64,000 nt of DNA, from the NCBI GenBank assembly GCA_000004985.1, contig GG738915.1. One strand, given 5' to 3'. The position numbers were made by a program, and so were the translations under genes. Source of the stretch: Naegleria gruberi. Its lineage: Eukaryota. Positions 13,843 to 15,055 of this stretch are shown here, one piece after another. The notes under the pieces were generated by a model that was given only the letters and a program-made list of their open reading frames with translations, ran no database searches and was not told the DNA's origin. Position 1 is the first letter of the stretch; each line of letters starts with the position of its first letter.

Positions 13843-15055
13843 TTAGTTAAGCTTAACAATGTTAGCCTTCAAAGACTTGATGACATTCTTTGGTTCAGCA
13901 CTTGGACAGGCATGAACGAACTTACAGATCTTGGTTGGGGTAACAGCAAGAAGGAGTTTTTGAACAAGGACAGGTGTATAGGTATCAACCAAATTTTCAC
14001 AGGCTGGTCCGAAGGTGGATGGCAATTTAGCACAGACCTTGTCCAATTTGTCTTCAACAAACTTGTCAATTGATTGTTGATTGATTTCTCTTTGGACGAG
14101 TTCCATAGCCATAATACAAGCTGGACAGATGGCCAACTTCTTGATTTCAGAGGTCATGACTGGAGCAGCGAATTGCTTAGCAATGAAAGCTTGCTTGGAT
14201 GAACACAAGTGCAAACCAGAACAGATTTGAGATGGGGAGTTGTGATCTTCGAGCTTCTTGATAATGTATGGAACCATTCTAGCAATAGACAAACAAGTTT
14301 GAGTAAAGACAGATGGAATGTTTGAGCACAATTGGTTCAACTTCTTTTGGATTTCTTGTTGAGAGTGATTAGAGTTGATGAAGTTTTCAATTTGACCAAC
14401 AGCATACTTGCAGATTTCACATTCAGCATCACCAGCCTTAGCTTCAGCCTTTGGAGCTTCAACAACAGGGGTAGCAACTGGAGCTTCAACAGTAGAGTTC
14501 TTTGGGCAGAGTGGCAATTGATCAGTACAGACTCTGACTGGAGTTTCATAGGTAATCAAAGCATTCAACAATTCATGACCATAGACGAGAACAACAGTGT
14601 TACAGATCTTTCCGAATTGGTTATCACCCAATTGAGAACAGACACCGAGGAGGGCCTTTTCAATAGCTGTAATAACAACAACAAGATAATGATGATGAAT
14701 ATTTAACATTTAGAGTGTTAATAAATAACATACCTGGTTCTTCCTTGAGGGCAAGGGCTTCAACAGTTTGGACAGCATATTCACAGACGCTACAGAATTG
14801 GCTTGGAGCAGCAGTAGTGAATGAGAGGGAGGCTATAGTACCATAATATAACATATTTCATCAATGTCCACAAAAATTATTAAATAACGATCATCCAACA
14901 TCATTTCATCATATTCAAAAATAATAATCATCGTCATTATCGCATCATGATATGTATATTTAATAATATTAATATTCCCTTCTATTGATGATGATTAAAT
15001 ACTACATACCAACAATAGCCAACAAGACGGCAACAATAATGGTGGAGGTCTTCAT
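13843..15055 (-). CDS. Secreted multi-saposin (SAPLIP) precursor, prosaposin/amoebapore/naegleriapore-like. Three exons: join(15055..15010, 14832..14734, 14666..13843), minus strand.
   Basis: Exon 1 encodes the signal peptide 'MKTSTIIVAVLLAIV' and ends at a GTATGT donor. The 177-nt intron ends in TATAG. Exon 2 encodes 'SLSFTTAAPSQFCSVCEYAVQTVEALALKEEP'. The 67-nt intron 2 (GTATGT...TTACAG) leads to exon 3, which carries three saposin-B-type Cys patterns: CSVCEYAVQ...C...C, CEICKYAVGQIENFI...CSNIP...C, and CPACIMAMELVQREINQ...CAKLP...C. Confidence 0.65.

Follow-up and report, generated by a model that had tools for sequence, protein, structure and literature searches.

A three-domain saposin-like precursor gene of Naegleria gruberi and its relation to the naegleriapore A precursor of Naegleria fowleri

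Does the gene at positions 13843-15055, minus strand, of a 64,000-nucleotide stretch of Naegleria gruberi DNA (contig GG738915.1; here called the window, meaning the whole stretch analysed) encode a precursor of membrane-permeabilising peptides, a prosaposin-type protein for lysosomal lipid handling, or a protein that acts without being cleaved? An initial annotation of this DNA had described a secreted precursor with three saposin-like domains, organised like prosaposin and possibly of the amoebapore or naegleriapore type. In the current study, we find a spliced gene for a 322-residue protein with a signal-like N-terminus and three saposin domains, whose orthologue in Naegleria fowleri, by sequence comparison, is the naegleriapore A precursor. 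We propose that this protein probably gives rise to peptides that permeabilise the membranes of ingested bacteria.

Gene structure and domain architecture

The gene runs from an ATG at 15055 to a TAA stop at 13845-13843 and is split by two short introns, as had been proposed. All its features described below lie on the minus strand. Exon 1 (15010-15055, 46 nucleotides (nt)) encodes Met1 to Val15 and the first base of codon 16, and with them the n- and h-regions of the predicted signal peptide. Exon 2 (14734-14832, 99 nt) finishes the signal peptide (SLSFTTA) and continues through the predicted cleavage point into the first helix of domain 1, which carries Cys29 and Cys32. Exon 3 (13843-14666, 824 nt including the TAA stop) covers what remains of domain 1, both linkers, domains 2 and 3 and the C-terminal tail. 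Both introns have GT..AG borders, intron 1 (14833-15009) being 177 nt long with the ends GTATGT...TATAG and 23% GC, and intron 2 (14667-14733) 67 nt long with the ends GTATGT...TACAG and 22% GC, vs 42% GC in the exons. The spliced coding sequence of 969 nt translates into 322 amino acids (aa). Besides, an AATAAA hexamer was read in the sequence 7 nt 3' of the stop codon (13831-13836) and may serve as the polyadenylation signal.

The initial annotation had also held that the open reading frame (ORF) track misses exon 1, which is correct but understated, exon 2 being missed as well. The ORF in question (13843-14709, 288 aa) starts at a spurious in-frame ATG within intron 2, and reads intron sequence as its first 14 residues (MLNIHHHYLVVVIT). 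Genes of this kind are cut short by prokaryote-style ORF calling, and in this case the signal peptide and half of domain 1 are lost and 14 intron-encoded residues are gained.

The 322-aa model is identical to the deposited N. gruberi protein XP_002670487.1 / EFC37743.1 (NAEGRDRAFT_82816; UniProt D2VZR0, 'Uncharacterized protein AM17'), an exact match that identifies the window as N. gruberi nuclear DNA and the deposited gene model as the same as the one derived here. The 'AM' names presumably go back to the 2010 paper on the N. gruberi genome and its amoeboid-motility phylogenetic-profile set; literature searches on the locus tag, the accessions and the origin of the name 'AM17' returned nothing useful.

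The N-terminus has the n/h/c layout of a signal peptide, in which MK is followed by a hydrophobic core of 15-18 residues and by a c-region that fits the -3/-1 rule for cleavage between TTA and AP. Hydropathy in this core (Kyte-Doolittle, 11-mers) rises to 3.55, the only strongly hydrophobic 19-mer of the protein lies here, and the orthologues carry VVSA and AP on the two sides of the predicted cleavage point. The 18 cysteines of the protein, with spacings of 3,26,12,25,7, then 3,28,11,24,6, then 3,28,11,25,6, make up three canonical six-Cys saposin frameworks, each of the pattern C-x2-C...C...C...C-x5-6-C. Three stretches match the Pfam model SapB_1 (E=8.7e-24, 83.6 bits, gathering cut-off 25.2) and three match SapB_2 (E=5.3e-20, 71.7 bits, gathering cut-off 21), and the full-length saposin model PF20825 reaches 35 bits (cut-off 27). 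The SapB_1 and SapB_2 matches, this far over their gathering cut-offs, are, on the strength of the sequence scores, not chance. A signal-like N-terminus and the three tandem frameworks separated by linkers, on which the initial annotation had built its proposal, are thus both found in the protein, and the Cys spacing fits the saposin fold. The SapA model PF02199 had no match at E<=1 in the 322-aa protein, and it is present in the mammalian prosaposins to which the protein is similar.

Domain 1 (14506-14794, Cys29-Cys102), matched by SapB_1 and SapB_2, is split by intron 2. It is followed by linker 1 (PKNSTVEAPVATPVVEAPKAEAKAGDAE, 14422-14505), a Pro/Ala/Val/Glu-rich segment and presumed processing region, which contains the conserved sequon N105-S-T (14491-14499) directly past the final Cys of domain 1, with N105 and T107 unchanged in five sequences. 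Domain 2 (14203-14421, Cys131-Cys203), also a Pfam match, has a His in a GLHLC motif and carries a second conserved sequon, N148-H-S (14362-14370), where saposin C has its glycosylation site. Linker 2 (SSKQAFIAKQFAAPVMTSEIKKLAI, 14128-14202), likewise a presumed processing region, is the most divergent segment of the protein, with 19% identity to the orthologues. Domain 3 (13906-14127, Cys229-Cys302), a match to Pfam as well, is of the three domains the closest in sequence to human saposin C. The protein closes with a tail of residues 303-322 (PSAEPKNVIKSLKANIVKLN, 13846-13905) that ends in K..LKA..V.LN and is predicted to be helical in a low-confidence full-length model, with the helix at 307-321. 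Seven tail residues (K312, L314, K315, A316, V319, L321 and N322) are invariant across the orthologues, and the tail is better conserved than either linker; this element (...KSLKANIVKLN) could be involved in sorting or oligomerisation.

A phmmer search of the PDB gave human saposin C (1m12, E=1.4e-10) as the best match, aligned to residues 228-307 in domain 3, followed by saposins A and D, the swaposin insert of phytepsin and surfactant protein B; amoebapore A was a weak match (E 0.027). All Cys align with those of saposin C and amoebapore A. An AlphaFold model of domain 2, for which the three paralogous domains were aligned from four taxa, has five helices and a predicted local distance difference test score (pLDDT) of 89.8. 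It superimposes on closed human saposin A (2dob) with a template modelling (TM) score of 0.85 and a root-mean-square deviation of 1.7 Å, and less closely on saposin C (TM 0.73-0.77), the hookworm protein Na-SLP-1 (TM 0.76) and NK-lysin (TM 0.63). As modelled, domain 2 has the saposin fold. The full-length model, based on the alignment of five orthologues, is poor (pLDDT 54, all-helical) and was kept out of the fold search; domains 1 and 3 are modelled at low confidence only, and both linkers score below 50 (residues 104-129 and 204-228).

Orthology with the naegleriapore A precursor and selection on the gene

The best match of the protein outside N. gruberi is C9374_004629 of Naegleria lovaniensis (E 7e-125, 65% identity, 98% coverage), and the next family after the Naegleria orthologues is that of the mammalian prosaposins (E 2e-26, 25-27% identity). 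The cluster formed by the N. lovaniensis protein at 90% identity includes N. fowleri FDP41_001319 together with AAK21658.1 / Q9BKM2, named 'naegleriapore A pore-forming peptide precursor'; residues 5-307 of the latter, which is derived from complementary DNA, are identical to the genomic model FDP41_001319. Aligned with Q9BKM2, the N. gruberi protein is collinear over the three domains at 66% identity, and an alignment of five sequences shows the 18 Cys, both sequons (N105 and N148) and the C-terminal K..LKA..V.LN motif to be invariant.

Gene structure agrees with this relationship. Introns 1 and 2 interrupt matching codons in N. lovaniensis and N. fowleri, in phase 1 each time, and exon 2 is exactly 99 nt long in all three species and in a metagenomic relative. 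The number of introns differs, with two in N. gruberi, three in N. lovaniensis and four in N. fowleri (the last two species at loci L001, 10001-11324, and L003, 10001-11377), which implies either intron loss in N. gruberi or gain in the lineage of N. fowleri and N. lovaniensis. The extra introns lie in domain 2, in N. fowleri only, and just ahead of the first Cys of domain 3. The metagenomic relative, at 1500-2660 of contig k141_955520 (ENA ERZ27315067), is a fourth orthologue and shares 62% identity with the N. gruberi protein. It has the exon 1/exon 2 layout and the neighbouring C9orf72-like gene of N. gruberi and was truncated likewise by prokaryote-style gene calling; its source is presumably an unsequenced Naegleria-like heterolobosean.

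Considering the collinear identity, the clustering with Q9BKM2, the shared introns and the shared C9orf72-like neighbour, we conclude from sequence and gene order that this gene and that of the N. fowleri naegleriapore A precursor are orthologues. This gives support to the amoebapore/naegleriapore-type precursor that had been suggested as a possibility. Other N. gruberi proteins were absent from the hits of the homology search with the 322-aa protein, a search made in this direction only.

Purifying selection acts more strongly on the domains than on the linkers. In Nei-Gojobori estimates that involve N. gruberi, the ratio of nonsynonymous to synonymous change (dN/dS) is 0.12-0.25 for the domains (0.12-0.16 for domain 1), 0.5-0.7 for the linkers (about 0.55 for linker 1) and 0.6-1.0 for the signal peptide, values that are rough since dS is about 1-2 and near saturation. 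Between N. lovaniensis and N. fowleri, the whole-gene dN/dS is 0.06. Conserved domains joined by diverging linkers are the pattern that would be expected if function resides in the folded domains and the linkers serve as spacers. The codon bias of the gene is the strongest among the 28 long ORFs of the window, with an effective number of codons of 31.2 vs 33.9-50.4 in the others, a GC content at third codon positions (GC3) of 0.41 vs 0.16-0.36, and the codon preferences AAG 24:3, GAA 21:0 and CAA 18:0. Such a bias points to high expression, which would fit an abundant granule protein.

An artefactual ORF or a pseudogene was also considered and is ruled out by the intact frame, the domain dN/dS values well below 1, the strong codon bias and the conserved splice sites.

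Pore-forming peptides, lipid handling or an uncleaved protein

By analogy with the N. fowleri orthologue, it is rather likely that the gene encodes a pre-pro-naegleriapore A, that is, a granule-delivered precursor whose cleavage at the linkers releases membrane-permeabilising peptides that kill ingested bacteria. A cleavable signal peptide of about residues 1-23 would direct the 322-aa precursor into the endoplasmic reticulum, where each saposin-B-type domain of about 75 residues would fold as a five-helix bundle with three disulfides, and one or two of the conserved N-glycosylation sites are probably used. The precursor would then be routed to acidic, lysosome-like granules, and endoproteases would cut the two unstructured, fast-evolving linkers to yield up to three separate saposin-like peptides. 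Upon fusion of granules with the phagosome, or upon exocytosis, the peptides would bind to membranes and make them permeable, with ingested bacteria as the main target. The targeting to granules, the glycosylation, the cutting of the linkers and the formation of pores are here inferred from the N. fowleri orthologue and from the saposin-like protein (SAPLIP) family.

Previous work on N. fowleri provides the basis for this reading. Published accounts describe naegleriapores A and B as SAPLIP pore-forming glycopeptides that are active on bacteria and eukaryotic cells and are located in granular vesicles (PMC4082629, PMC8469197). Unlike amoebapores, naegleriapores are encoded as several isoforms in pre-pro-multipeptide precursors (PMC6723116), and separate SAPLIPs are known to arise by processing of the naegleriapore B precursor (PMC11542183). 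According to the papers that cite Herbst et al. (2002), it was as a pore-forming activity that the N. fowleri orthologue had been purified (PMC6723116, PMC8296547, PMC4082629, PMC8469197). The naegleriapore precursor genes were up-regulated in mouse-passaged N. fowleri, in a study that terms the A gene 'prosaposin' (PMC8296547), and naegleriapore A homologues have been noted in N. gruberi (PMC9928731). The computed charges are consistent with a peptide of acidic compartments: with two flanking residues included on each side, domain 1 is acidic (pI, the isoelectric point, 4.7 for residues 27-104), and domains 2 and 3, roughly neutral at pH 7, reach +3.9 and +2.2, respectively, at pH 5. Domains that are neutral or acidic at pH 7, two of which turn cationic at pH 5, would fit an activity at acidic pH.

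Several points weigh against release of pore-forming peptides. Amoebapore A is more distant from the domains in sequence than are the lysosomal saposins A and C (E 1e-10 to 1e-6), and the domains are not cationic at neutral pH, unlike antimicrobials of the NK-lysin type. The documentation of pore formation and of proteolytic processing comes from N. fowleri and is extended to N. gruberi by inference, and processing of an A-type precursor into three peptides was undocumented in the literature searched, which did not include Herbst et al. (2002, 2004). Besides, hydropathy and the -3/-1 rule were the only means by which the signal peptide was assessed, codon bias is only a proxy for expression, and the near-saturated dS leaves the contrast in dN/dS approximate.

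The main alternative is a lysosomal lipid-handling role of the prosaposin type. The domains would then act mainly as sphingolipid-activator or lipid-extraction cofactors, cleaved or not, that present the membrane lipids of digested prey to lysosomal hydrolases and form no lytic pores. The mammalian prosaposins are the best matches after the Naegleria orthologues (E 2e-26), saposins C and A are the top matches among solved structures both by sequence and by fold, and the sequon N148-H-S aligns to the saposin C glycosylation site. The N. fowleri gene has been named 'prosaposin' by Herman et al. and in a pangenome paper (PMC8296547, PMC9928731), and amoebic SAPLIPs have been reported to have roles beyond the killing of bacteria (PMC5890168). 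Against this stand the purification of the N. fowleri orthologue as a pore-forming activity, as reported by the papers citing Herbst et al. (2002), and the absence of the SapA domains (PF02199) that flank animal prosaposin. We regard a mainly lipid-handling role as rather unlikely, although the two roles are not mutually exclusive because saposin C also perturbs membranes.

It is very improbable that the three domains stay together as a single unit, for instance a membrane-binding or sorting factor with the linkers as flexible tethers: the linkers have no conserved dibasic or other recognisable processing motif in the alignment, the conserved C-terminal tail suggests a role for an intact C-terminus and, in the literature searched, multi-peptide release is described as demonstrated only for the naegleriapore B precursor (PMC11542183), but what was isolated from N. 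fowleri as naegleriapore A is a small polypeptide, reviews derive the naegleriapores from pre-pro-multipeptide structures (PMC6723116, PMC8469197), and the linkers are predicted to be disordered and, scaled to synonymous change, evolve 2-4x faster than do the domains, as is typical for excised spacers.

Membership in the animal prosaposin family was considered separately and is ruled out by the presence of three rather than four SapB domains and by the absent SapA domains. The protein is therefore organised like prosaposin, as the initial annotation had held, but lies outside the animal prosaposin family; it belongs to the SAPLIP family and, within it, to the orthologue group of naegleriapore A precursors.

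Overall, the observation that prompted this work was correct and concerns an ordinary and known gene, whose model and homology are already public. The N. fowleri orthologue was characterised biochemically in 2002, and comparative genomics has already stated that naegleriapore A homologues are present in non-pathogenic Naegleria. The value of the present analysis for annotation is that the N. gruberi entry, a hypothetical or 'uncharacterized protein AM17', can safely be renamed as a naegleriapore A-like, three-domain saposin-like precursor. A difference in function between the two species is a speculative suggestion to which we give little weight: the N. gruberi precursor may release a different or additional pH-switched pore-forming peptide relative to that of N. 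fowleri, because domain 3 ends in FVHAC instead of LVDAC and because linker 2 has almost wholly diverged. If true, a comparison of the peptides made, rather than of which genes are present, could be relevant to why N. fowleri alone is pathogenic.

Genomic context and comparison with known systems

The gene is convergent with a neighbour on the plus strand (11852-13693) that encodes a C9orf72-like (DENN-type) protein of 613 aa (Pfam PF15019, E=4.7e-17) and that serves as a marker of synteny without belonging to the precursor system itself. This neighbour has His- and Asn-rich low-complexity runs near its N-terminus. The convergent pair of saposin and C9orf72-like genes is kept in N. lovaniensis, N. 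fowleri and the metagenomic contig, with a neighbour of about 600-610 aa. Synteny is lost upstream, where N. gruberi has genes for a TFIIB-repeat protein (16204-16908, plus strand) and a class II aminoacyl-tRNA synthetase (17014-19023, plus strand; tRNA-synt_2b and HGTP_anticodon) vs a mitochondrial carrier gene in N. lovaniensis and N. fowleri. An Rce1-like CAAX protease (8322-9266, minus strand), recognised by Pfam as were the two upstream genes, is also encoded near the naegleriapore A locus of N. lovaniensis and N. fowleri, in a different order.

Neither the introns nor the 5' flank had conserved elements across species in comparisons involving N. gruberi (z <= 2.9), intron 1 having no sequence conservation beyond chance against the other species (z = 1.7-2.9). 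The 64-kb window contained no match to Rfam families, no tRNAs and no second saposin-domain gene in a six-frame scan with hidden Markov models, in which all other hits had E > 0.3. Two segments of the window depart from its mean GC content of about 33%, namely 28001-30000 (27% GC, with an ORF at 28935-30422 of GC3 0.16) and 32001-34000 (41% GC, with an ORF at 32114-34177).

Proteins with more than one saposin B domain are also known from Dictyostelium discoideum, where the Apl proteins are likewise presumed to be processed into several antimicrobial peptides and mostly have N-glycosylation sites (PMC5890168, PMC11542183). They differ in belonging to another eukaryotic supergroup, and no specific sequence relationship between them and the N. 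gruberi protein was seen in the homology search.

The amoebapores of Entamoeba histolytica (amoebapore A, 1of9) share with the N. gruberi domains the SAPLIP fold and the six Cys, and the N. gruberi peptides would further resemble them in being stored in granules and in permeabilising membranes. Amoebapore A (KIHAC) and saposin C (MLHLC) have a His two residues ahead of the last Cys, as do domain 2 (GLHLC) and domain 3 (FVHAC) of N. gruberi. The His of the amoebapore A motif is implicated in pH-dependent activity. The sequence similarity to amoebapores is weak, and these are made from single-domain precursors, whereas naegleriapores are contained in multi-peptide precursors (PMC6723116).

Animal prosaposin resembles the N. 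gruberi protein as a secretory precursor of tandem saposin-B-type domains and linkers that is bound for acidic compartments, and the likeness to animal saposins includes the fold of domain 2, which matches that of saposins A and C, and the position of the sequon in saposin C. It differs in having four SapB domains with N- and C-terminal SapA domains vs three SapB domains and no PF02199 here, and in its identity of 25-27%. Besides, animal saposins are cofactors of hydrolases, whereas the characterised Naegleria orthologue, that of N. fowleri, is a lytic peptide.

The closest known system is the naegleriapore A precursor of N. fowleri (Q9BKM2, AAK21658.1; FDP41_001319). The N. fowleri locus differs upstream, with a mitochondrial carrier gene in place of the TFIIB-like gene, its gene has four introns vs two, linker 2 is only 19% identical, and domain 3 ends in LVDAC, as it does in N. 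lovaniensis, vs FVHAC in N. gruberi, a non-pathogenic species. The two precursors are alike in the signal peptide and the same order of three SapB domains, in the 18 Cys, both sequons and the ...LKA..V.LN tail, and their genes share introns 1 and 2 and the C9orf72-like neighbour.

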